NCBI GenBank assembly: GCA_030390025.1
Contig: CM059432.1
Coordinates: forward strand, 16,990,001-17,054,000
Direction of reading: 5' to 3'
DNA length: 64,000 bases
Source: Squalus acanthias
Lineage: Eukaryota
Shown: positions 8,046 to 60,861 of the stretch, piece after piece
Layout: every line of letters starts with the position of its first letter
Numbering within the stretch: position 1 is the first letter of the stretch
Position numbers and translations under genes: made by a program
The notes under the pieces: generated by a model
What the model was told of the DNA's origin: nothing
The model's database searches: none
Seen by the model: the letters and a program-made list of their open reading frames with translations, nothing else

Positions 8046-9601
8046 AAATAGGTCAAGCTGAGTTAGGTGCTCACAAATGGTGATGCAGTTACTGCATTAG
8101 TAAGAAACTGCAGCTACATTTTAGGCACATGGGATTAGAACAATTGTTCATGTGGAGGATAAGCACCAAAACAGGCTGGTTGGACCTGTATTGTAACTTC
8201 CATGTAATTCTATACAAAGGTACAATATAAGATTATTCTATTTCTGCCATCAAGTGGTTGGAAGTGGTTATGACAAGATAATAGTAATTTTAGGCTCCAC
8301 TTAAAATTACAATGCGAAGTAATTCTATTTGGGAACATGTAATTTGTTAAGTCATCTGCTGGAAGAACATGATTTAGGCCTCATGGATCAGTTTGCCATT
8401 TTGGTGATGCACTCCACTTACCTCGCCCTGAAGCTGCTTGTAACAACAGCATCTAGAAGATCACAGCTACTTAATAGTGGGAAAATGATCAATACATTCT
8501 GGAGCACCTACATGCTTCCCTCCAGGCTGCCCAGGTCAGGGATTACTATTTCCAGGCTCCTATAACCACATTTTCATCGAAATCACTCCTTTTTGATAAC
8601 TCTGGCCTGCTCCACATCTAAAAACATCTTAACGACATCTTCAGATGTCACTTTCTGCGGTACCTCTTGCCTGCTGCATGACACATCTTGTCTGCTTACC
8701 ACCACCACCACCACCACCAACGATTCTGCTCCATTTCTGGGTCTGGCCACTCCATCACTTGGGACTGTACTCAGAATCTGGGCCTATTTTCGGAGCCTGG
8801 GCCTGGTTTGCTTCAGGTCACACACCCCAGCACCTCCAAACCCACATCACCCCATCAGTGCTTCCAGCTCCCTGCCTCAGTACTCCCAGAATCCTTCAGT
8901 ACTCCCAGTTCCCATCTCCCTCTCCAATGCATCTACCTAAGTACTTCCATATCCCAACTCGCTTCATTCTTCCAACACCTCACCTATGCCCCATTGATCC
9001 GACAGCCCAGGTCCCGACTCCCCCGCACTTTGAGCTCTCAAGTGCTCTGAGCACTGGTCTCCTGCCACTGCCCCCACCCCCGCCCACAAGCTCTTCAGTT
9101 CTCCCAGTCTTCATACTTTTCCTTTGAGTGTTCCACCCCACTACCTTGCGAGTTCTTCCATGGCCTGGCACCTCTGCTCCTAGACTTCACACCCTGCCCT
9201 ATGAGTACTCCCCTTGCCCCAGTCTCCCGATGAGTGCTATCACTACCCAGGAACCCTCAATTCCTACTAAACCTAAACTCCAATTTCACCAAGTGTTCCC
9301 AGACCCCAGCACTCCCATATCTCATCTTCTGTAACTACTTCCAATTTCTATCCCTCTCCCCGTTTCCTCCTATACTCCAATTGCAATACATTGCTTTCTT
9401 GCTGCCACAACCCCCCATCCCCACCTGGTCTGATGCACCACCCCACCTTCCCACTTAACTGTCCAAATAACAGCACCTCTCTGACAGCCTCTCCCTGCCC
9501 CCCACATGCAATCTGATATATGTTGCCTTCCATCTTCATGAACACTTTCAGCGTTGAAACAAGCTAACAGACAATTAGTGACCACTTCAGTAAAGGAACA
9601 T

Positions 9602-10162
9602 GTGTCCTTTCCAACTCTGGTGTTAAAGTCGCCAAGGAGGATCAGCTTGTCGCCCATTGGGACTCGGGATTGTTCGAGGCTGGAGTAGAATTCCTCTTTG
9701 GTCTCACCTGTGGCTTCCAGTGTTGGGGCGTACGCACTGAGTTATAGAGTCATAAAGTTATACAGCACAGAAAAGGCCCTTCGGCCCATCGTGTCTGCAC
9801 CGGCCATCAAGCCCTATCTATTCTAATCCCATTTTCCAGCACTTGGTCTGTAGCCTTGAGCTGGCCTTCCCCTGCCCGCCGGGTCTCACTTAGGGCGGCG
9901 ATGTCAATGTCGAAACGTCTGAGCTCCCGGGCAACAATAGCAGTACGGCGTTCCGGTCTGTCACTGTTGGGGTTGTCCATGAGGGTCCTGAATTTCCAGG
10001 TCCCGAACTTCATTTTAAAGGGTGGAAGATGCCTGTGCGTGAATTCTTTTAACGTGGGGTGGCCGTTGCACACCAGCTACCACACGGGCTTGACAGAGTA
10101 AGGTCTTGGTCCAATGGCAAGGGGATCCAAGACGATTGGAGACCAGGCTCTGCTACAACGGC
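9602..10162 (-). pseudogene. RTE 5' UTR and endonuclease N-terminal half (inverted)
   Basis: MKFGTWKFRTLMD...DIAALSETRRAGEGQLK, then SAYAPT...LILLGDFNTRVGKDT (APE motifs). Confidence 0.85.
9741..9855 (-). mobile_element. Short CR1 3' tail replacing part of the RTE endonuclease
   Basis: gatgggccgaagggcc...tgtgctgtataactttatgactctataac, a CR1-type 3' end. Confidence 0.7.
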
Positions 10163-10313
10163 CTTCTCTGCTGCAAGGAGAACAATCGCTTCTCTAGTCT
10201 CGCCACTTAACTGAAGTCTCTCATCCTTGGTACCATTCTAGTAAACCTCCTCTTCTCTAAGGCCTTGGCATCCTTCCTAAGTGCGGAGCAAAGAATTGGA
10301 CACAATACTCCAG
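10163..10313 (-). mobile_element. CR1 ORF2 fragment, putative cryptic exon
   Basis: LEYCVQF.APH, RRFTRMVP and ttgttctccttgcagcagagaag match CR1 ORF2 C-terminal region seen in other copies here. Confidence 0.8.
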
Positions 10314-10540
10314 CTGGAGTCCTTGTGCTCCAGGATCCACTTCCGTGTCTAAAACAGCGATGAGAACCCCCTTGCCATTGTATTCTGGGTACTGGGAGAA
10401 GAAAGACGCAGCGCCGGACTCTTTCTTCGGTAAAAGTGTCATCGAGATGAGCAGCCATGACTCGACTCTTGCTGCCGGCGCTGTCTGTGCCTGAACGGAG
10501 CGCTGCCGTCGCCTCTCGCCCCTCTCTCACTCGCCGCCAG
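10314..10540 (-). pseudogene. TPP2: TPP2 (tripeptidyl peptidase II) 5' UTR plus first coding exon, retrocopied fragment
   Basis: ATG at 10458 (MAAHLDDT), small frameshifting deletion, then [40 protein letters not shown], matching vertebrate TPP2 [42 protein letters not shown]-rich leader 10459-10540. Confidence 0.92.
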
Positions 10541-13242
10541 ATTGGCAGAGAGGGGGTAGGGAAAGCCAACTCAACGGTACCCTCCTCCTGTCGAAATGCT
10601 TAGAACATGGCCTTGTCATAACCAACACCTTGTTCCATCAGAGAGACAAGTACAAGGCTTCATGGCAGCACCCTCGCTCCAAGCACTGGCATCTGTTGGA
10701 CTACGTCATCGTCCGAGCGACGGACCGCAAGGACGTCCGCATCACCCGCGCCATGACAGGAGCTGACGACTGCTGGACAGACCACCGCCTAATCCGCTCT
10801 GTCATCTCCATCAATGTAGCCCCAAAACAGCGGCGGCAACAGAAACAATGCCGCAGGAAAATCAACGCTGGAGCATTCAAAGACCCCGCTAAGAAGGCCC
10901 TATTCAGCCTGCACCTCACAAACAACCTGACGACTCCCAGTGATGCAGAGACACAGAGTGCCCACAGCGCCTGGTCTGCACTCAAGGCCTCCATAATCAG
11001 CACCTGTGAAGAGACGCTCGGTCACTCGACCAAGAAACACCAAGATTGGTTCGACGAGAACGGCCAGGAGATCCAGGAGCTAATAAGCCGCAAGCGCAAG
11101 GCATTCCTGATCTGGAAACAGCAACACAACTCGAGAACAAGAAAGCAGCTCCACAGACGCCTGAAGGCCGAGGTCCAACAAAAAACTCGCGACCTAAAGA
11201 ACAGATGGTGGGTGGAGAAAGCGCAGGAGATCCAGCAGCTAGCCGACAACCACGACGTGCGTGAATTCTTTAGCGCAGTCAAGACCATCTATGGCCCAAC
11301 CACCCAAGGCCAAGAACGGAGAGGTAATCATCAAGGACAGAGAGGCAGTCAGTGCCAGCTGGAAGGAGCACTTCGAAGATCTCCTTAACCGCGACTCTGT
11401 CTTCGACGCAAGTTACCTCAACTCCATCCCGCAGCATGCTACCCGCCAGCACAACCCCAGCCCAGCATGAGGTTGAAAAGGCCATCCGACAACTGAAGAA
11501 CAACAAGGCCTCAGGAGCAGATGGAATCCCTGCCGAGGCACTAAAGCATGGTGGAGAAGCACTACTGGCGCGAATTCATGAACTCACTTCTCTTATCTGG
11601 AAGGAGGAGAGCATGCCAGGGGATCTCAGAGACGCCGTAATTGTGACCATCTTCAAGAAAGGTGACAAGTCCGATTGCGGTAATTACAGAGGAGTTTCCC
11701 TGCTGTCTGCCACAGGTAAAGTCATCGTAAGAATCCTCCTCAATCGCCTTCTCCCAGTGGCCGAAGAGCTCCTCCCAGAGTTGCAATGCGGATTCCGCCC
11801 ACTAAGGGGCACAATGGACATGATCTTCACCGCACATCAATTACAAGAGAAATGCAGGGAACAGCACCAATCACTGTACATGGCCTTCTTTGATCTCACA
11901 AAGGCCTTCGACACTGTCAACCGTGAGGGATTATGGAGTGTTCTCCTCAAATTCGGCTGCCCTCAAAAGTTTGTCACCATCCTCCGCCTGCTTCACGACG
12001 ACATGCAAGCCGTGATTCCGACCAACGGTTCCACCACAGACCCAATTCACGTACGGACCAGGTCAAGCAAGGCTGTGTCATCGCACCAACGCTCTTCTCG
12101 ATCTTGCTCGCTGCAATGCTTCATCTCACCCTCAGTAAGCTCCCCACTGGAGTGGAGCTAATTTACAAAACAAACAGGAAACTGTTCAACCTCCGTTGCC
12201 TCCAGTACAGATCCAAGGTTGTCCCATCCTCTGTCGTCGAATTACAGTATGCAGACGACGCTTGCGTCTGCGCTCACTCGGAGGTCGAACTCCAAACCAT
12301 CGTCAACACCTTCACCGAAGCGTACGAGAGCATGGGCCTTACACTAAACATCCATAAGACAAACGTCCTCTACCAACCTGCCCCCGCCACACAGTACTGC
12401 CCCCCGATTATCAAAATCCACAACAAGGCCTTGGACAACGTGGACCACTTTCCATATCTCGGGAGCCTACTGTCAACAAGGGCAGACGTCGATGACGAAG
12501 TCCAACACCGCCTTCAGTGTGTCAGTGCAGCCTTCAGTCGCCTGAGGAAGAGAGTGTTTGAAGACCAGGACCTCAAACCCGGCACCAAGCTCATGGTCTA
12601 CAGAGTAGCAGTGATACCCACCCTGCTGTATGCCTCAGAGACATGGACCATGTACAGCAGGCACCTCAAAGCACTGGAGAGGTACCACCAATACTGCCTC
12701 CACAAGATCCTGCAAATCCATTAGCAGGATAGGCGCACCAACGTCAGTGTTCTCGCTCAGGCCAAATCCCCAGCATCGAAGCTTTGACCACGCTCGATCA
12801 GCTCCGATGGACGGGTCACATCGTCCGCATGCCCGATACGAGACTCCCAAAACAAGCGCTCTACTCGGAGCTCCGACACGGCAAGAGAGCCCCAGGTGGG
12901 CAGAGGAAACGCTTCAAGGACACCCTCAAAGCCTCCTTGAAAAAGTGCAACATCCCCACCGACACCTGGGAATCCCTGGCCCAAGACCGCACAAAGTGGA
13001 GGAGAAGCATCCGGGAAGGCGCCGAGCACCTCGAGTCTCTTCGCCGGGAGCAAGCGGAAGCCAAGCGCAAGGAGCGCACGTCAACCCAAGCACCCCACCC
13101 ACCCGCCCCTTCAACCACCGTCTGCCCCACCTGTGACAGAGACTGTAGGTCCCGCACTGGACTCATCAGTCACCTGAGAACTCATTTTTAATGTGGAAGC
13201 AAGTCATCCTCGGTACCGAGGGACTGCCTAAGAAAGAAGAAA
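10541..13242 (+). pseudogene. RTE ORF (rest of endonuclease, RT, C-terminal C2H2 finger), frameshifted
   Basis: IGREGVGKAN..., WHLLDYVIVR, NYRGVSLL, FFDLTKAFDTV, VKQGCVIAP, LQYADD, CPTCDRDCRSRTGLISHLRTH; (aag) tail; several frameshifts and a stop at 12722. Confidence 0.93.
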
Positions 13243-13399
13243 AAAGGAACATAAGTGAGAGTGACGCAGACACACCAAGGATGTAAAAGAGACGAGAAGT
13301 GTACAGGAGAGACTTAGACAAAAAGTGAAATATAAATGAGGAGAAAACAAATCAAACAGAGTGATATTGACACCAGAATGAGAAAAGTGTGTGACAGCC

Positions 13400-37092: not shown

Positions 37093-38079
37093 AAGAAATA
37101 GGAGCAGGAGTAGGCCATTTGGCCCTTTGAGCCTGCTCCGCCATTCAATAAGATCATGGCTCATCTTCTGCCTCATCTCCACTTTCCTGAACTATCCCCA
37201 TATCCCTTGATTCCCTTAATATTCAAAAATCTATCGATCTCTGTCTTGCATATACTCAACGACTGAACCTCCACAGCCCTCTGGGGTAGAGAATTCCAAA
37301 GATTCACCACCCTCTGAGTGAAGAAATTTCTTCTCATCTCAGTCCTAAATGTCCGACCCCATAGTCTGAGACTGGTTCTAGAATCCCCAGTCAGGAGAAA
37401 CATCCTCCCTGCATCTACCCTGTCAAGTCCTGTAAGAATTTTGTATCTTTCAATGAGATCACCTCTCATTCTTCTAAACTCTAGAGAATATAGGCCTAGT
37501 CTACTCAATCTGTCCTCATAGGACAATCCCAGGAACCAGTTTGGTGAACCTTCGTTGCACTCCCTCTATGGCAAGTATATCCTTCCTTAGGTAAGGAGAC
37601 CAAAAGTGTACACAATACTCCAGGTGTGGTCTCACCAGGGCCCTATATAATTGCAGTAAGACGTCTTTACTCTTATACTCAAACCTTCTTGTAATAAAGG
37701 CCAACATACCATTTGCTTTCCTAATTGCTTGCTGTACCTGCATGTTAACTTTCAGTGATTCGTGTACAAGGACACCCAGGTCTCTCTGAACACCAACATT
37801 TCCCAATCTCTCACCATGTAAAAAATACTCTGCTTTTCTACTTTTCCTACCAAAGTGGATAACTTCACATTTCTCCACATTATATTCCATTTGCCATGTT
37901 CTTGCCCACTCACTTAGCCTGTCTATATCCCCTTGAAACCTCCTTGCATCCTCCTCACAACTTACATTCCCACCCAGCTTTGTATCATCAGAAAACTTGG
38001 ATGTATTATATTTGGTCCCCTCATCCAAATCATTGATGTAGATTGTGAATAGCTGAGGCCCAAGCACTGATCCTTGCGG
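37093..38079 (-). mobile_element. CR1 LINE 3' part
   Basis: [25 protein letters not shown]; 3' UTR ggcctactcctgctcctatttctt. Confidence 0.9.
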
Positions 38080-39725
38080 TCACATCCTTCCTGTAATGTG
38101 GTGACCAGAACTGCATGCAGTACTCAAGCTGTGGCCTAACCTGTGTTGTATACAGTTCTAGCATAACATCCCTGCTCTTATATTCTATGCCTCGGCTAAT
38201 AAAGGAAAGCATTACGTATGCCTTTTAGAGTGCTGGAGATCATTGGGTGCCAGGTTGTGGGCACCGTGGCCACCGGCGACGTTGACCCCCTTGGGGACAA
38301 CAACGATATGTTGATTCCTACTCCTTCTTCTCACATCCCACATCCCCCTCAGCCCACAATCTTTTCTCACTTTCAAGCTACTCATGCTGTATGCATGCAT
38401 TTCTGCCTTCCTGCCCCCCTCCCCTCACCATAACCCGACTCTTGTGCCTTTCTGCTTTCAGATAATCAGCAAGCACCTGAGCAGCCTGTCCCTGAGGGCA
38501 CCGCAGAGAGCGAGGGGGGAGAAGAGGAGGAAGAAGAAGACACCGCGTCACATGCTGTCACTCGCAGACACCAGCTCAGATACTGGCACTATGCATTCTT
38601 TAGAGGCTAGTGTAGTAGTGGGATCTGCACAGGGTGAGGCAACGGGCATGAGTGGGCTACAGCAAAACCGGGGGAAAGGGTAGCTTGGGGGCCAGCTCCC
38701 TAGAGGGTGGGTTCGTGCGAGAGTTCTGCTCTACAGGACTCAGATGAGGACCTCGATGGGGAGGTCTTCAGAAGAAAGGTGATGGGCATGCACACGGAAA
38801 TGATAGGTGCAATGGCAAGGCTGCCAGAGAGCCTCTCGGCAATGGCAAGGAGTGTGGAGGAGTTTGCCTCCAACATTGCACAAGGCTCTGTGCAGAGCAT
38901 GGAGCCCACCATTTCCAGTCTGCAAATGATGGTACACTCCCCGAGAGACCATGGTGACCCAGACTTGATGGTGCGCATGATGAGCGATGTCACAGCTTCC
39001 ATTGCAGCACAGGCGGAAGCGACCCAACATCTTAATGCTGCAGCGGAAGCTCAGACTGCTCTCAGTCTCTGCTTGGTGACATCCAAGCTCTGACTGCTGC
39101 CATCGTGACTGGGTCTACCACTGTAGACCGGGGCGTTCACGGTTTCGCAGCAGGCCAGCAATCTCTGCTCCAACAGATTGCGAGGAATGCTGAGGTGCTG
39201 CCCCGGAGGAGTGTCAGTGGAGCAGGAACCTGCTGTCCTCTCTCAGGATGAGAGCATTCCTGCTCCCACCACTGCCACTCCGCCATTGCCCTCGTTGCTG
39301 CCTGTCATCCAGCCAGCCCAGACTGCTGCCACACATGCCGAGGTGGTGCAGTCTACAGCCGGGCCTTCTAGGTCCAGAGCTGGTGAAGGTTGTCCTGCAA
39401 GGCCATCTGAAGTCTCCCGCACGGAAACTCAGCAGCCTTCCACCAGCCGTGCTGCAGCTACTGGGGGCGCACTGCGTAGGAGCACTAGAGTAGGAAAAGG
39501 GACACGAACAACAGGCACTAAGGGATTGCACAAGGGTGATTAGTTAATAGTGTTGTGATATGTGTGATATGTGTAGAGATAAATTTATTCATTGTGTTTG
39601 GAATCTTTTGTGGTGTCTCTCATTTCAGCTTTACGCGCAGGAGAACGCTGTGATATGGCCTGCGACAGGGATGGTATGATGGGGATGTGGTGAGCAATGG
39701 GGATCTGGGGTTTCATTCATTCGAA

Positions 39726-40849
39726 TCAGACTCTGAATAGCTGGTCACGGACCGCCCATCCGGAAGGCCGATTGTCTGGCTGCCTCCTCTCTCCCCCTTG
39801 TTCCTCTCCCTCCTCGTCCTCCTCCTGAGGTGGTCCTGCAATCCCTGGTGGCAAGGGCTGCGTCCTCATGATGGCCAAGTTGTGGAGCATGCAGCAGATC
39901 ACCACGAAATGGGACATCCGCTCTGCCGAGTACTGGAGGGCTCCTCCTGTGTGGTCAAGGCAGCGGACTGTTGCTTCAGTAGGCCGATGGTCTGCTCGAT
40001 GATGTTCCTGGTGGCAGCATGGCTCTCATTATCAGAGTGTTGGGCACGAGTATTGGGGTTGCGGAGGGGAGTCATGAGCCAGGTGGAGAGTGGATAGCCC
40101 TTGCCTCCGAGCTGCCACCCTTGAGCTTGACGTGGTGGCTGGAAGAGTGCTGGCACACCGGTCTGGCACAGGAGGAAGGCATCGTGGCTGCTGCCAGGAT
40201 AGCGGGCATTGACATTGAGGATTTGCTGTGTGTGGTCGCACACCAACTGCACATTAAATGAGTGGTAGACTTTGCGGCTACAGAAGATCTCAGGATTGTT
40301 ATGCGGTGCCCGCAAAGCCACATGGGTGCAGTCGATGGCGCCCTGCACCATGGGGAAGCCCGCTATCCTGGCAAAGCCACTTGCATGCTAGTCCTGCTTC
40401 TCTCTGGTGATCAGGAAGCCAATGCAGTCCCTTCTCCTGGTGTAGAGAGCCTCAGTGACCTCCCAGATGCAGCAATGGATGGCGAACTGGGAGATGTTAG
40501 CTACGTCTCCTGCTGCAGACTAGAAGGATCGCTGGCGAAGAAATTGAGGGCCACAGTGCCACTGGAGAGTTGTGGTCACCCTGGTCTGAGGCTGGAGGTC
40601 TGGTTGCAAGAGGCGGCAGAGTTCTGTGACCACCTCCTTGGTGAAGCGAAGCCTCCTAATACACTGCTCCTTGCTTAATTGAAGGTAGGAGATGTGCTGT
40701 TGGAAGACCCTCAGAGGGTAAGGCCTCCTGTTGAGAGCCCTGATGGCCCTCCTCCTCCCTCTGCGCACATGTTCCCGTCTTTCTCGCTGCCTTCGCTCTC
40801 TCCGCCGTAGATCCTGGAGGGTGAGGTCGACTGCCAGTACAGCCCCCAT
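39726..40849 (-). pseudogene. Harbinger (HARBI1-like) DDE transposase, frameshifted
   Basis: GAIDCTHV, YHSFNVQLVCD, YPGSSHDA, GKGYPL..WLMTP, RNIIEQTIGLLK, CCMLHN; ORF broken into three pieces and second Asp (GDKGY) reads GGKGY. Confidence 0.92.
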
Positions 40850-41573
40850 GACTTTCAGCAAGTGTTGTAGTTTGAAGTGTTTCAAAAGTAATGAGGGAGT
40901 TTTGTACTTGCCAGAACACTCCCTGATACTAAATAACCTTGAAATGACTAAAGAAAACTCTTGCAGTAACAGGAATTAGCACACAACCACACAACTTCAA
41001 AACCCTGTCAGGTGTGAGTGATTGGTGAGGATTCCTTTAAATAGCGTCGCTGGAGCTGGCTTCCTGTGGCTGCTCACCACCTCAACCTGTCATTGCTTTC
41101 TCCAGCCAGTAAGTTCAATGGCCAAAACGAAGTTGGGAGATGGGGCGTCAAGTGAGCGTTGCACGCTCACTGACGTCATGATCTCCGTGATTGCGATGTC
41201 ACTGGCGACCGAATTTATCGGCTGCGCTACTGGCAAGACGGATATGGTGTGTGGTGCTGGAACCGCCATCAGCTCATGGTAGAGCTCTGAACGACGTTTT
41301 AGCGCCATCTCGTGGTGCTAACGTGTGGCGCTAAACACACAAATTTCTCCCCGAGTGTATAAACAAGTAGCATAGTAAACTAAACATCTCTGCAGAATCA
41401 TCCAAAATAGTGACTGAAGGCTACATTCTCCCACCACCTCAGTCTTTGCACCAGCTCTCACAACAGGAACTCACATTTCCATGTCATCTCAGGCGTTGAG
41501 CTTCTGGCCTTGAGCCACCACCTACCACCCCTGTATCTGGCGATTTTGTCACATTGGGATGTCTCTGTCCTGC

Positions 41574-56972: not shown

Positions 56973-57919
56973 ATGGCAGTAGAGCTCGGACCTGTGTCAT
57001 GCTCCTCCTGTAACATGTGGGAAATCAGGGACGCTTCCTGTGGCCCTGACAACCATGTGTGCGGGAAGTGTGTCCAGCTGCAGCTCATGTGGGACCGCAT
57101 GACGGCCCTTGAGCTGCGGATGGACTCACTTTGGAGCATCCACGATTCTGAGAGGGTTGTGGATAGCACATTTAGTGAGTTGGTCACACCGCAGGTTAAG
57201 GCCAGCGTAGATAGTACATGGGTGACCAAAAGGCAGAGCAAGGGCAGGAAGGTAGTGCAGAAATCCCCTGGGGTTGTCTCCCTTAGCAACAGGTTCACCG
57301 CCTTAGGTGCTGTTGTCGGGGGGGATGACTCATCGGGGGAAGGCACCAGCAGCCAGGCTCATGGCACCATGACTGGCTCTGTTGCAAAGAAGGGAGGGAA
57401 AAAGGTGGCAGGGCTATAGTAATAGGGGATTCGATTGTAAGGGGAATAGATAGGGGTTTCTGTGGTCGCGACCGAGACTCCAGGATGGTATGTTGCCTCC
57501 CTGGTGCAAGGGTCAAGGATGTCTCGGCGCGGGTGCAGAACATTCTGGAGGGGGAGGGGGAACAGCCAGTTGTCGTGATACATGTTGGTACCAACGACGT
57601 AGCTAAAAAAAGGGAAGAGGTCCTACAAGTAGAATTTAGGGAGTTAGGAGCCAAGCTAAAAAGTAGGACCTCGAAGGTAGTAATCTCTGGATTACTACCA
57701 GTGCCACGTGCTAGTAAGAGTACAGAGAACAGGATAGTTAGGCTAAATACGTGGCTTGAGCAGTGGTGTAAGAGGGAGGGTTTTAAATTTTTGAGGCATT
57801 GGAACCAGTTTTGTGGTAGGTGTGACCTATACAAAAGGGACGGTCTACACCTGTGCAAAGATGGAACTGATGTTCTCGGGGTAATTTTTGATAAAGCAGT
57901 TCGGGAGCATTTAAACTAG
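56973..57919 (+). CDS. CR1 ORF1 (zinc finger/leucine zipper plus SGNH esterase), one 1-nt frameshift
   Basis: CSSCNMWE...CGKC, IGDSIV, HVGTND, DGLHL; adding one A to the run at 57399-57403 joins the two ORFs. Confidence 0.85.
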
Positions 57920-60861
57920 TATGGCAGGGGGCTAGAAACCTATGTAGTGAAATAGAGGAAAGTGAAAGGCAGACAGAAATAAATGGTAAAAGGGTGAGGA
58001 ACAAAAAACAAAGGGCCAAACTAATTCATAAAAAATGTGAGCATAAAAAAAGCCTGAGGGTTTTATACCTTAATGCGAGAAGCATCAGGAACAAGGTAGA
58101 TGAATTAGCTGTGGAAATAGAGGTTAATAATTATGATCTAATTGGGATTACGGAAACATGGTTGCAGGGTGAGCAGGGCTGGGAGCTTAACATACAGGGG
58201 TATTCAGTATTTAGGAAGGATCGACAAAAAAGAAAGGGAGGAGGGGTAGCATTGCTGGTAAAAGAGGGGATAAATGCAATTGAAAGGAAGGATATTAACT
58301 CAGTTAATACAGAATCTATATGGGTGGAGCTAAGAAATAGCGAGGGGCGAAAAACATTAATAGGAGTGGTATATAGGCCTCCAAATAGTAAAATAGAGGT
58401 TGGGGAGGGCATCACGAGGGAAATTAGAGAAGCGTGCAATAAGAGCACAGCTGTCATCATAGGTGACTTTAACTTACATATAGATTGGACTAGCCTAATC
58501 AGTAAAAATAATGAGGAGGAGGAATTCCTTGAGTGTTTAAGGGATGGTTATCTGGATCAATATGTCGAGGAACCAACTCGGGAACAGGCTATATTGGACT
58601 GGGTACTGTGCAATGAGAAGGGACTAATTAGTAATCTTGTTGTACGGGGACCCTTGGGTCAGAGCGATCATAACATGATCGATTTCTCACTCGAAATGGA
58701 GAGCGAAGAAATTGACTCAGAGACTAAGGTCCTGAATTTAAACAAGGGGACTTATGATGCCATTAGACGGGAACTGAGTAGGTCTGATTGGACAACGTTC
58801 CTGGGAGGACTGGAGGTAGATAAACAATGGCAAGCATTTAAAGATAGAATGACAAAATTGCAAAAATTGTTTATACCAATCTGGCATAAAAGGAAATCTA
58901 AAAAGGTGACTCAACCGTGGATAACAGGGGAAATTAGAGACAGCATAAAATCCAAAGATAGGGCGTATAAAATAGCCAAAAAAAGCGCCAGAGCGGAAGA
59001 TTGGGAACAGTTTAAGATAGAGCAAAGGAGGACAAAGGGCTTAATCAAGAGGGGCAAAATAGCTTACGAAAGCAAGCTGGCGGAAAATATAAAAACTAAC
59101 TCCAAAAGCTTTTATAAGTATATCAAGAGGAAAAGACTGGTGAAAACCAAAGTTGGTCTATTGCAGTCAGATACGGGGGAATATATAACGGGAAATAAGG
59201 AAATGGCAGACCAACTAAATGCATACTTTGGGTCAGTCTTTACGAAGGAAGACACAAAAAACCTCCCTGGGATATCGGGAAAAATAGGGACATTGGCAAA
59301 GGAGGAACTGACGCAAATCAATATCTCTAAGGATATGGTGTTAAGGAAGCTAAAGGGATTGAAGGCGGACAAATCCCCAGGGCCTGATAACATGCATCCT
59401 AGGGTACTGAAGGAGGTGGCCCTAGAGATAGCGGATGCACTAAGTATGATTTTTCAAAATTCATTAGACTCGGGAACAGTGCCCATGGATTGGAGGGTAG
59501 CTAACGTTACCCCACTATTCAGAAAGGGGGGTAGGGAAAAAGCAGGTAATTACAGACCTGTAAGCCTTACATCAGTTGTGGGCAAAATGCTGGAGTCCAT
59601 CATTAAGGATGAAATAGCGGAGCACTTAGCAAATGGGGACAGGATAGGACAGAGTCAACATGGATTTACAAAGGGTAAATCGTGCTTGACTAATCTATTG
59701 GAATTTTTTGAGGGAGTAACTGGTAAAATAGATGGGGGAGAGCCAGTAGATGTGGTGTACCTGGACTTCCAAAAGGCCTTCGACAAGGTCCCACATAAAA
59801 GATTAGCATGGAAAATTGAAGCTCATGGGATAAAGGGGAAAGTATTGACGTGGATAGAGAACTGGCTGTCAGATAGAAAACAGAGAGTTGGAATAAACGG
59901 CTCATTTTCTGAATGGCAGGCAGTAACAAGTGGGGTACCACAGGGATCTGTCCTGGGTCCCCAGCTGTTCACAATTTACATTAATGACCTGGATCAGGGA
60001 GTCGGATGCAGCATTTCCAAATTTGCAGATGACACTAAACTAGGAGGGGGGGTGGGCTCAGAGGAGGAGACCAGGAAGCTCCAGAGCGATTTGGACAGAC
60101 TGGGTGATTGGGCGGATAAATGGCAGATGCACTATAATGTGGACAAGTGCGAAGTTATCCACCTTGGGTGCAGGAACGGGAGGGCAAATTATTATTTAAA
60201 TGGCAATAAATTGGGAGAGGGGGAAGTACAGAGAGACCTGGGTGTTCTTGTACACCAGTCACTGAAGGCGAGCATGCAGGTGCAACAGGCGGTCAAGAAG
60301 GCAAACGGTATGCTGGCCTTCATAGCAAAAGGGTTGGAATACAGGAACAGGGATACCTTGCTGCAGCTGTACAGGGCACTGGTGAGACCACACCTCGAGT
60401 ACTGTGTACAGTTTTGGTCGCCTCATCTGAGGAAAGATGTTCTTGCCATGGAGGGGGTGCAGCGGCGATTCACCAGGCTGATACCAGGAATGGCGGGATT
60501 GACCTATGAGGAGAGACTATGTAGTTTAGGGATGTACACACTGGAGTTTAGAAGATTGAGAGGGGACCTCATAGAAGTGTATAAAATTCTGACAGGTCTA
60601 GACAGACTAGATGCAGAAGGAATGTTTCCCTTAGCGGGTGAGAACAGAACTAGAGGACATAATTTAAGGATAAGGGCTAAACCATTTAGGACAGAAATGA
60701 GGGGGAATTTCTTCACTCAGAGGGTGGTGAACCTGTGGAACTCATTGCCACAGAGGGCAGTGTACGCCAGCTCATTAAATATATTTAAGAGGGAATTAGA
60801 TATATTTCTACAGGCAAAAGGGGTTAAGGGTTACGGAGAGAAGGCGGGGACGGGATACTGA
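57916..60861 (+). CDS. CR1 ORF2 (APE endonuclease plus reverse transcriptase), uninterrupted
   Basis: 955 aa open from 57994 (GTG) and open upstream to the ORF1 stop; ITETW, GDFN, SDHN, PQGSVLGP, KFADD. Confidence 0.95.
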   Translation, partial: LVWQGARNLCSEIEESERQTEINGKRVRNKKQRAKLIHKKCEHKKSLRVLYLNARSIRNKVDELAVEIEVNNYDLIGITETWLQGEQGWELNIQGYSVFRKDRQKRKGGGVALLVKEGINAIERKDINSVNTESIWVELRNSEGRKTLIGVVYRPPNSKIEVGEGITREIREACNKSTAVIIGDFNLHIDWTSLISKNNEEEEFLECLRDGYLDQYVEEPTREQAILDWVLCNEKGLISNLVVRGPLGQSDHNMIDFSLEMESEEIDSETKVLNLNKGTYDAIRRELSRSDWTTFLGGLEVDKQWQAFKDRMTKLQKLFIPIWHKRKSKKVTQPWITGEIRDSIKSKDRAYKIAKKSARAEDWEQFKIEQRRTKGLIKRGKIAYESKLAENIKTNSKSFYKYIKRKRLVKTKVGLLQSDTGEYITGNKEMADQLNAYFGSVFTKEDTKNLPGISGKIGTLAKEELTQINISKDMVLRKLKGLKADKSPGPDNMHPRVLKEVALEIADALSMIFQNSLDSGTVPMDWRVANVTPLFRKGGREKAGNYRPVSLTSVVGKMLESIIKDEIAEHLANGDRIGQSQHGFTKGKSCLTNLLEFFEGVTGKIDGGEPVDVVYLDFQKAFDKVPHKRLAWKIEAHGIKGKVLTWIENWLSDRKQRVGINGSFSEWQAVTSGVPQGSVLGPQLFTIYINDLDQGVGCSISKFADDTKLGGGVGSEEETRKLQSDLDRLGDWADKWQMHYNVDKCEVIHLGCRNGRANYYLNGNKLGEGEVQRDLGVLVHQSLKASMQVQQAVKKANGMLAFIAKGLEYRNRDTLLQLYRALVRPHLEYCVQFWSPHLRKDVLAMEGVQRRFTRLIPGMAGLTYEERLCSLGMYTLEFRRLRGDLIEVYKILTGLDRLDAEGMFPLAGENRTRGHNLRIRAKPFRTEMRGNFFTQRVVNLWNSLPQRAVYASSLNIFKRELDIFLQAKGVKGYGEKAGTGY

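Follow-up and report, generated by a model that had tools for sequence, protein, structure and literature searches.

The capture of a host gene's first exon by splicing has been described for primate SVA and L1 elements, in which the element gains a new promoter. In the SVA_F1 (MAST2 exon 1) and chimpanzee pt_SVA_D6 (STK40 exon 1) families, 84 and 94 members, respectively, share the same join (PMC6139936). Inverted front ends are also known, and in L1 such an anatomy is produced by twin priming (PMC2912911). In the present study, we describe an insertion in 64,000 nucleotides of Squalus acanthias DNA (assembly GCA_030390025.1, contig CM059432.1, positions 16,990,001 to 17,054,000; hereafter the window, whose own coordinates are used throughout), in which exon 1 of TPP2 is joined through a CR1-type fragment to a long interspersed nuclear element (LINE) of RTE type. 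If clearly established, such a case in a shark RTE-type LINE would carry the exon-capture route into a further clade and a distantly related host. We use the labels RTE and CR1 because they appear to fit the motifs and tails of the window elements. On balance we consider it probable, with considerable room for doubt, that the locus is one twin-primed RTE-type insertion made from a spliced RNA that took its first exon from a dispersed, deletion-bearing copy of TPP2 exon 1, and not from the working gene, continued with a cryptic CR1 exon and entered the RTE element at a cryptic acceptor in its 5' untranslated region (UTR). The captured exon itself seems to be a repeat, which was unexpected; if this is true, the first exon of a housekeeping gene serves as a mobile promoter and splice donor, with a bearing on chimeric transcripts of repeat-rich shark genomes, as in the Mustelus gene models discussed below. 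The insertion described here is a single dead copy with no shown function.

First, the chimera is a real and well-formed insertion. A 3.66 kb RTE-type LINE insertion, with its front 940 bases inverted, lies within a 10-bp target-site duplication (TSD; 9592..13252) and is composed as follows, the open reading frame being abbreviated ORF and the reverse transcriptase RT:

9592..9601, plus strand: left TSD, AAAGGAACAT (exact repeat search, random placements).
9602..9740, minus strand: endonuclease part of the RTE-type ORF (SAYAPT...GDFNTRVGKDT), the end of the inverted arm, continuing in intact copies at 10540 on the plus strand (weak Exo_endo_phos match, E 0.085; contig joints).
9741..9858, minus strand: CR1-type 3' tail within the RTE ORF, with 5-nt microhomology CAAGG (9858-9854) at its 5' join and replacing about 70 endonuclease profile positions (window alignments, loose contig ends, Pfam positions).
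9859..10013, minus strand: start of the RTE-type ORF, ATG at 10013, MKFGTW...GEGQLK (Exo_endo_phos, E 0.022).
10014..10162, minus strand: RTE 5' UTR from the putative cryptic acceptor onward (native copies have a TG-repeat tract, TAG directly before 10162 and further upstream sequence).
10163..10313, minus strand: internal CR1-type piece of 151 nt, LEYCVQF...QRR, a candidate cryptic exon with small deletions (window alignments, contigs).
10314..10458, minus strand: coding part of TPP2 exon 1, starting at the ATG and ending at Gln54; 17 nt are deleted between 10437 and 10436; apparently multi-copy in related genomes (protein matches, contigs).
10459..10539, minus strand: GC-rich leader of 81 nt, GC 0.69, CpG observed/expected 1.1 (composition; contigs match only the ~10 bases adjoining the ATG).
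10540..13242, plus strand: body of the RTE-type LINE with endonuclease end, RT, C2H2 finger, ORF in four frame-shifted pieces (stop 13191), 3' UTR and GAA-rich tail (reading frames, Pfam).
13243..13252, plus strand: right TSD, AAAGGAACAT (exact repeat search).

As the initial annotation of this locus had proposed, the whole unit is enclosed by one TSD. The 10-mer AAAGGAACAT occurs exactly twice in the window, both times on the plus strand, and the repeat extends no further; 0.23 matches would be expected per shuffle, and a 10-mer was shared in 3 of 20000 random placements with equal geometry. The captured exon and the element therefore share one TSD, as in exon trapping, and a single insertion is indicated, since the TSD encloses both arms. 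The order of leader, TPP2, CR1 and RTE that had been read along the minus strand was recovered in all its parts, but the unit is not colinear: the minus strand holds only the first ~560 LINE bases (10162-9602), and the remaining 2.7 kb (10540-13242), including the RT (PF00078, E 3.6e-20 and 3e-11), lies on the plus strand, the head being on the minus strand because of the 5' inversion. The CpG ratio of the leader (1.1) contrasts with 0.25-0.26 in the flanks.

Evidence from outside the window was drawn from protein collections and from the contigs of four public sequencing runs aligned to 9540-10660 at 85% likeness, namely X1 (organism A, DNA, 55% read), X16 (organism A, RNA by guess), X7 (organism C, 96% read) and X13 (organism E, 72% read). 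These are the 4 of 24 candidate runs that were compared; the best run contains 0.54 of the sampled words, and all four may come from relatives of the species of the window. The contig results refer to the pieces listed, which belong to longer tables with at least 116 further rows and at least 1452 further loose ends. In all four runs, contigs of intact elements link 9601 with 10540, the two sides being in opposite orientation, and ~17 RTE bases that are missing from the window can be read from loose ends before 10540. The left TSD adjoins one inversion breakpoint and the two breakpoints are adjacent in intact elements, as in twin priming; the target end and the internal priming site share one letter (9601). 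The anatomy of the inverted front end is thus observed directly, and as its mechanism we infer a twin-priming 5' inversion. Part of the leader (10490-10527) has almost no contig cover in the four runs, and such a hole proves nothing. An assembly artefact is ruled out by the intact TSD and by the presence of the TPP2/CR1 join in a contig of another organism, and a later genomic inversion by the position of one breakpoint exactly at the TSD.

The RTE-clade features that are present comprise a single ORF with APE endonuclease and RT, a short repeat tail and a TSD near 10-12 bp, the endonuclease matches lying below the Pfam cut-off. The TSDs of RTE elements peak at 10-12 bp (PMC4245944, PMC6007223), and the present duplication, 10 bp long with A as its first letter, is in keeping with RTE. 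The LINE copy is dead, since its ORF is split into four frame-shifted pieces. The RTE 5' UTR and the ORF that the initial annotation had placed behind it are both present, but the ORF is interrupted by the second CR1 piece (9858-9741), which is 71% identical to the window copy at 35750-35634. Intact RTE copies are without this inner tail, and loose contig ends show that CAAGG is common to both at its 5' join. We take it for a short CR1 insertion accompanied by a loss of target sequence, either before or after the mobilisation of the chimera.

Second, the captured host sequence stops at the end of an exon. On the minus strand, 10436-10314 translates to LLPKKE...PGAQGLQ and matches TPP2 (PDB 3LXU, E 1.5e-7), with 83% identity to shark and ray TPP2. 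Codons 8-13 have lost 17 nt, and several residues of the piece are changed, among them the G of DTGVD, which is E here. That TPP2 exon 1 ends at the Gln codon of the join had been stated in the initial annotation and is now borne out by proteins and gene structures. Among 57 short TPP2-like ORFs, 40 depart from TPP2 right after Gln-Val, 16 continue in an exon-2-like manner and 1 joins another exon; in a second set (105 new proteins among 111 matches), 101 depart after Gln-Val, 1 continues and 3 do neither. These are mostly machine-called frames of contigs and are not independent, and the Val after Gln points to an unspliced GT donor, since GT would encode it. In the TPP2 gene of a distant eukaryote, on a contig of a metagenome collection (locus L001, 1875-3317), GT follows codon 54 and AG precedes the next exon, so that the first intron lies at the same codon boundary as in vertebrates; this was the lone locus from a TPP2 motif scan of metagenome contigs and is informative only for intron position. 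In Mustelus asterias, all seven gene models (six names) join another exon at this Gln.

The Mustelus models (P0004, P0006-P0008, P0087, P0189, P0190) consist of an undeleted TPP2 exon 1 followed by one and the same exon from outside TPP2 (DGGNLVK...). Several of them lie on the chromosome that carries TPP2, and others on small scaffolds. These models, which do not have the deletion, show that the start of the TPP2 gene has been duplicated in one shark at least. Neither a match to their extra exon nor a second TPP2 piece was found in the 64-kb window. The deletion and the CR1 continuation were seen in none of the shark-like proteins among the matches listed from three TPP2 searches, and the off-frame reading of the deleted exon gave five protein matches, all to unrelated repeat-rich sequences. 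A processed TPP2 pseudogene is ruled out, as the unit is without exon 2 and without poly(A). We also observed that at 10446-10260 (minus strand) the deletion brings an ATG (in CTCGATGACA) in frame with Leu14 of TPP2, and that the resulting frame (MTLLPKKE...) enters the CR1 piece before a frameshift and a stop; this is probably chance.

Third, related genomes appear, from their contigs, to harbour tens to hundreds of stray copies of TPP2 exon 1. When the summed depth at ten listed positions within the TPP2 piece was divided, run by run, by the median depth of long low-copy pieces, record 5 (depth 273) being excluded, the ratios were 22-312 (X1), 26-220 (X7) and 8-474 (X13), although by the caveat of the tool itself summed contig depth does not equal copy number. 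An alternative letter at 10437 was carried by at least 47 (X1), 72 (X7) and 66 (X13) separate contigs; because dozens of contigs differ at this position, a single gene is excluded as their source. At seven listed amino-acid-changing positions the contig letter restores the TPP2 residue, which marks the multi-copy contigs as real TPP2 paralogs. The deletion site is crossed by six listed pieces, and records 8 (organism A), 30 and 32 (organism C) must carry the 17-nt deletion, as judged by the fewest mismatches possible for an undeleted exon. Since the deletion is common to contigs only 85-86% identical to the window exon (records 8 and 32), it is probably older than the insertion. The RTE part of the window differs from the pieces of the RNA run in 15 of 559 letters (five pieces), or in 23 of 651 when record 20 is included. 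Taken together, these sequence comparisons suggest that the donor was probably not the working TPP2 gene.

The opposite possibility, put forward in the initial annotation, is that the working TPP2 gene had the CR1 piece and the RTE element in its intron 1 and that the spliced RNA was transcribed from the TPP2 promoter, as in RAP1GDS1/L1PA2. The same splice signals would be used, a precedent in cis is known (PMC11838501), and in the Mustelus models this donor is seen to join other exons. However, an exon of a working TPP2 gene cannot lack 17 nt, and the deletion is common to records 8 and 32 although these differ by 14-15% from the window exon, which is far above the difference between the RTE part and its relatives (~3-4%), so that separate deletion events, or the descent of those copies from an earlier retrocopy, would be needed. 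A source in the working gene is thus held to be unlikely.

The TPP2/CR1 join is not confined to the window, since it is found, together with the deletion, in record 30 of organism C (depth 22.5), which covers 10263-10462 with 9 differences in 200 letters and no gap. From its sequence, record 30 may represent the same insertion by inheritance or a sibling copy. It also bears on a second alternative, in which TPP2 exon 1 and CR1 formed a pre-assembled head, that is, an amplified composite retroelement similar to SVA_F1 and carried by CR1 or RTE, one member of which subsequently used its CR1 donor to splice into an RTE element nearby. The high copy number and the shared deletion point to one master copy, and the presence of the join in a second organism is in agreement with this, but the depth of record 30 is that of a low-copy piece, record 32, which has the deletion, departs at 10320 with 34 non-fitting letters, and record 16 stops at 10315 and record 31 at 10314, neither of them within the CR1 piece. 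We consider such a head improbable, to about the same degree as the source in the working gene.

As to how the joins were made, the initial annotation had held that both fit splicing and that the CR1 fragment is normally preceded by ccacAG. This view is upheld for the end of exon 1 and for the RTE acceptor. The captured sequence stops at the 3' end of the host exon, as in exon trapping, and native RTE copies match through 10164 and then extend upstream, with 34 contigs of X7 showing a TG-repeat tract that ends in TAG at the join; records 4, 6 and 23 stop at 10164 with 12, 611 and 47 additional upstream letters. Because the native copies continue upstream past the TAG, the 5' end of the element itself was replaced at an AG. 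On the CR1 side the view is less well sustained. The CR1-type piece (10313-10163) is 62-67% identical to other CR1-type copies in the window, and the copy near 38130 (RPQLEYC) does have CCACAG before the Leu codon, but the proportion among the other copies is one in six, the remaining five reading CCACAC or CCACAT. For the CR1 donor, GGTT stands near the spot in a noisy loose end of seven X16 contigs (agreement 0.69), and the three readable window copies have GC, GC and GA. The splice reading is therefore supported at the exon-1 end and the RTE acceptor and more weakly at the CR1 sites. The RTE 5' UTR motif gave no match in genome, viral or metagenome contigs. X16, the run guessed to be RNA, has low depth over the exon (2.7-11.8), which was not counted as expression.

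A third alternative, joining in trans, would have TPP2 exon 1 trans-spliced to LINE RNA, or the reverse transcriptase switching templates at microhomologies of three letters. Three letters are common at both joins; in human L1 chimeras 15 of 17 genes are without an intronic L1, which was read by the authors as trans-splicing (PMC11838501), and RTE-clade U6 chimeras in a lizard are ascribed to template switching (PMC4476161). Against this, a switch exactly at the end of exon 1 plus another at the native TAG would be two coincidences. The middle piece, moreover, is 151 nt long, a typical size for an exon. The exact exon end favours splicing over microhomology, although the letters alone leave microhomology possible, and joining in trans is given a likelihood as low as those of the two preceding alternatives.

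Herein, we propose that the insertion out of a dispersed exon copy arose in four steps. First, TPP2 exon 1 with its splice donor would have been duplicated long ago, would have lost 17 nt and would have spread to tens or hundreds of copies. Second, one exon copy would have been transcribed into downstream DNA that held a CR1 and an RTE element, both in sense orientation, and two splices would have followed. Third, one target end would have primed at the RTE tail to give the plus arm and the other inside the RNA near 9602 to give the minus arm, with the loss of ~17 RTE bases at the break; here the structure is observed, and the mechanism is the one that would produce it. Fourth, the CR1 tail would have entered the RTE ORF before or after these events, and if before, another RTE element would have moved the RNA in trans, which is allowed by the recognition of LINE 3' ends (PMC3747384).

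Several points weigh against this proposal. The CR1 donor and acceptor signals are weakly supported, and each join shares three letters (CAG; AGG), as template switching would also leave. The listed pieces include neither a source locus nor an RNA contig that spans one of the joins, and records 7, 16 and 31 do not decide whether the deletion is present. The exon looks more decayed than the RTE part (10/145 versus 15/559, p 0.022), but the difference fades to p 0.10-0.28 under other handling of record 20, gap letters or CpG changes and is not robust. In addition, summed contig depth gives no copy number, and the sequence 3' of the exon in other copies is not among the listed pieces.

A wider hypothesis, which we put forward tentatively and regard as possible but rather less than probable, is that a shark repeat family derived from TPP2 exon 1 carries a CpG-rich gene start and a splice donor to hundreds of sites, acts as a portable promoter and exon trap, splices onto downstream LINEs and is re-mobilised by them, this insertion being one product. 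The repeat catalogues in the supplements of shark genome papers or in Repbase may already contain a TPP2-derived repeat, unnamed. Literature searches, to which subscription journals were mostly outside the scope, gave no match for TPP2 with shark or elasmobranch, and no title on a shark RTE element with a spliced host exon among those on RTE chimeras and shark repeats; the available part of PMC13343379 contained nothing bearing on a dispersed TPP2 gene start.

Other elements were also observed in the window. At 37516-38190 (minus strand), the CR1 piece with RPQLEYC (~38137) is directly followed by an earlier RT part of another CR1 copy, which forms a CR1-in-CR1 junction. At 57895-60861 (plus strand), what we take to be a CR1-type ORF2 is open for 988 codons, with a presumably esterase-like ORF1 piece in front (57329-57919), and this copy looks young. 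Convergent frames at 38704-40975 comprise a transposase-like one (minus strand, GAIDCTHV motif) and a partner gene (plus strand), which we assume to be a Harbinger-type transposase and its partner.

Among known systems, the closest precedent for a dispersed gene start is the set of promoter and first-exon duplicates of Schistosoma japonicum (PMC3434034), in which a gene start lies at many loci (34 contigs) among RTE-like repeats and is spliced to new downstream sequence. That case was read as DNA-level duplication giving expressed genes, and the abstract describes no retrotransposed spliced product. In twin-primed L1 copies (PMC2912911, PMC4245944), as in the window, the inverted 5' part adjoins the left TSD, the breakpoints are adjacent in the intact element and a small loss occurs at the break; such inversions are described almost only for L1 in human cells (PMC4245944), whereas the present element is RTE-type and has one shared letter at the internal priming site. 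The mRNA/L1 chimeras, including RAP1GDS1/L1PA2 (PMC11838501), likewise carry one or more sense first exons before a near full-length LINE within one TSD, with splice signals at the join. They are human and of the L1 clade, and the source element has been found for RAP1GDS1 only, whereas the exon in the window has apparently been taken from a multi-copy derivative, and the unit has an inverted 5' part. In SVA_F1 and pt_SVA_D6, as here, a GC-rich host first exon replaces the 5' end of the element, ends at the exon 3' end and joins an AG of the element, and extra exons can be added in front or between (PMC6139936). These are non-autonomous primate elements moved by L1, whereas the window holds an RTE-type LINE of a shark genome with a CR1 piece in between and one other join contig among the listed pieces. 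Of the six defining features of SVA_F1-type exon trapping, three are found in the window unit, namely the exon end, the acceptor and the TSD.

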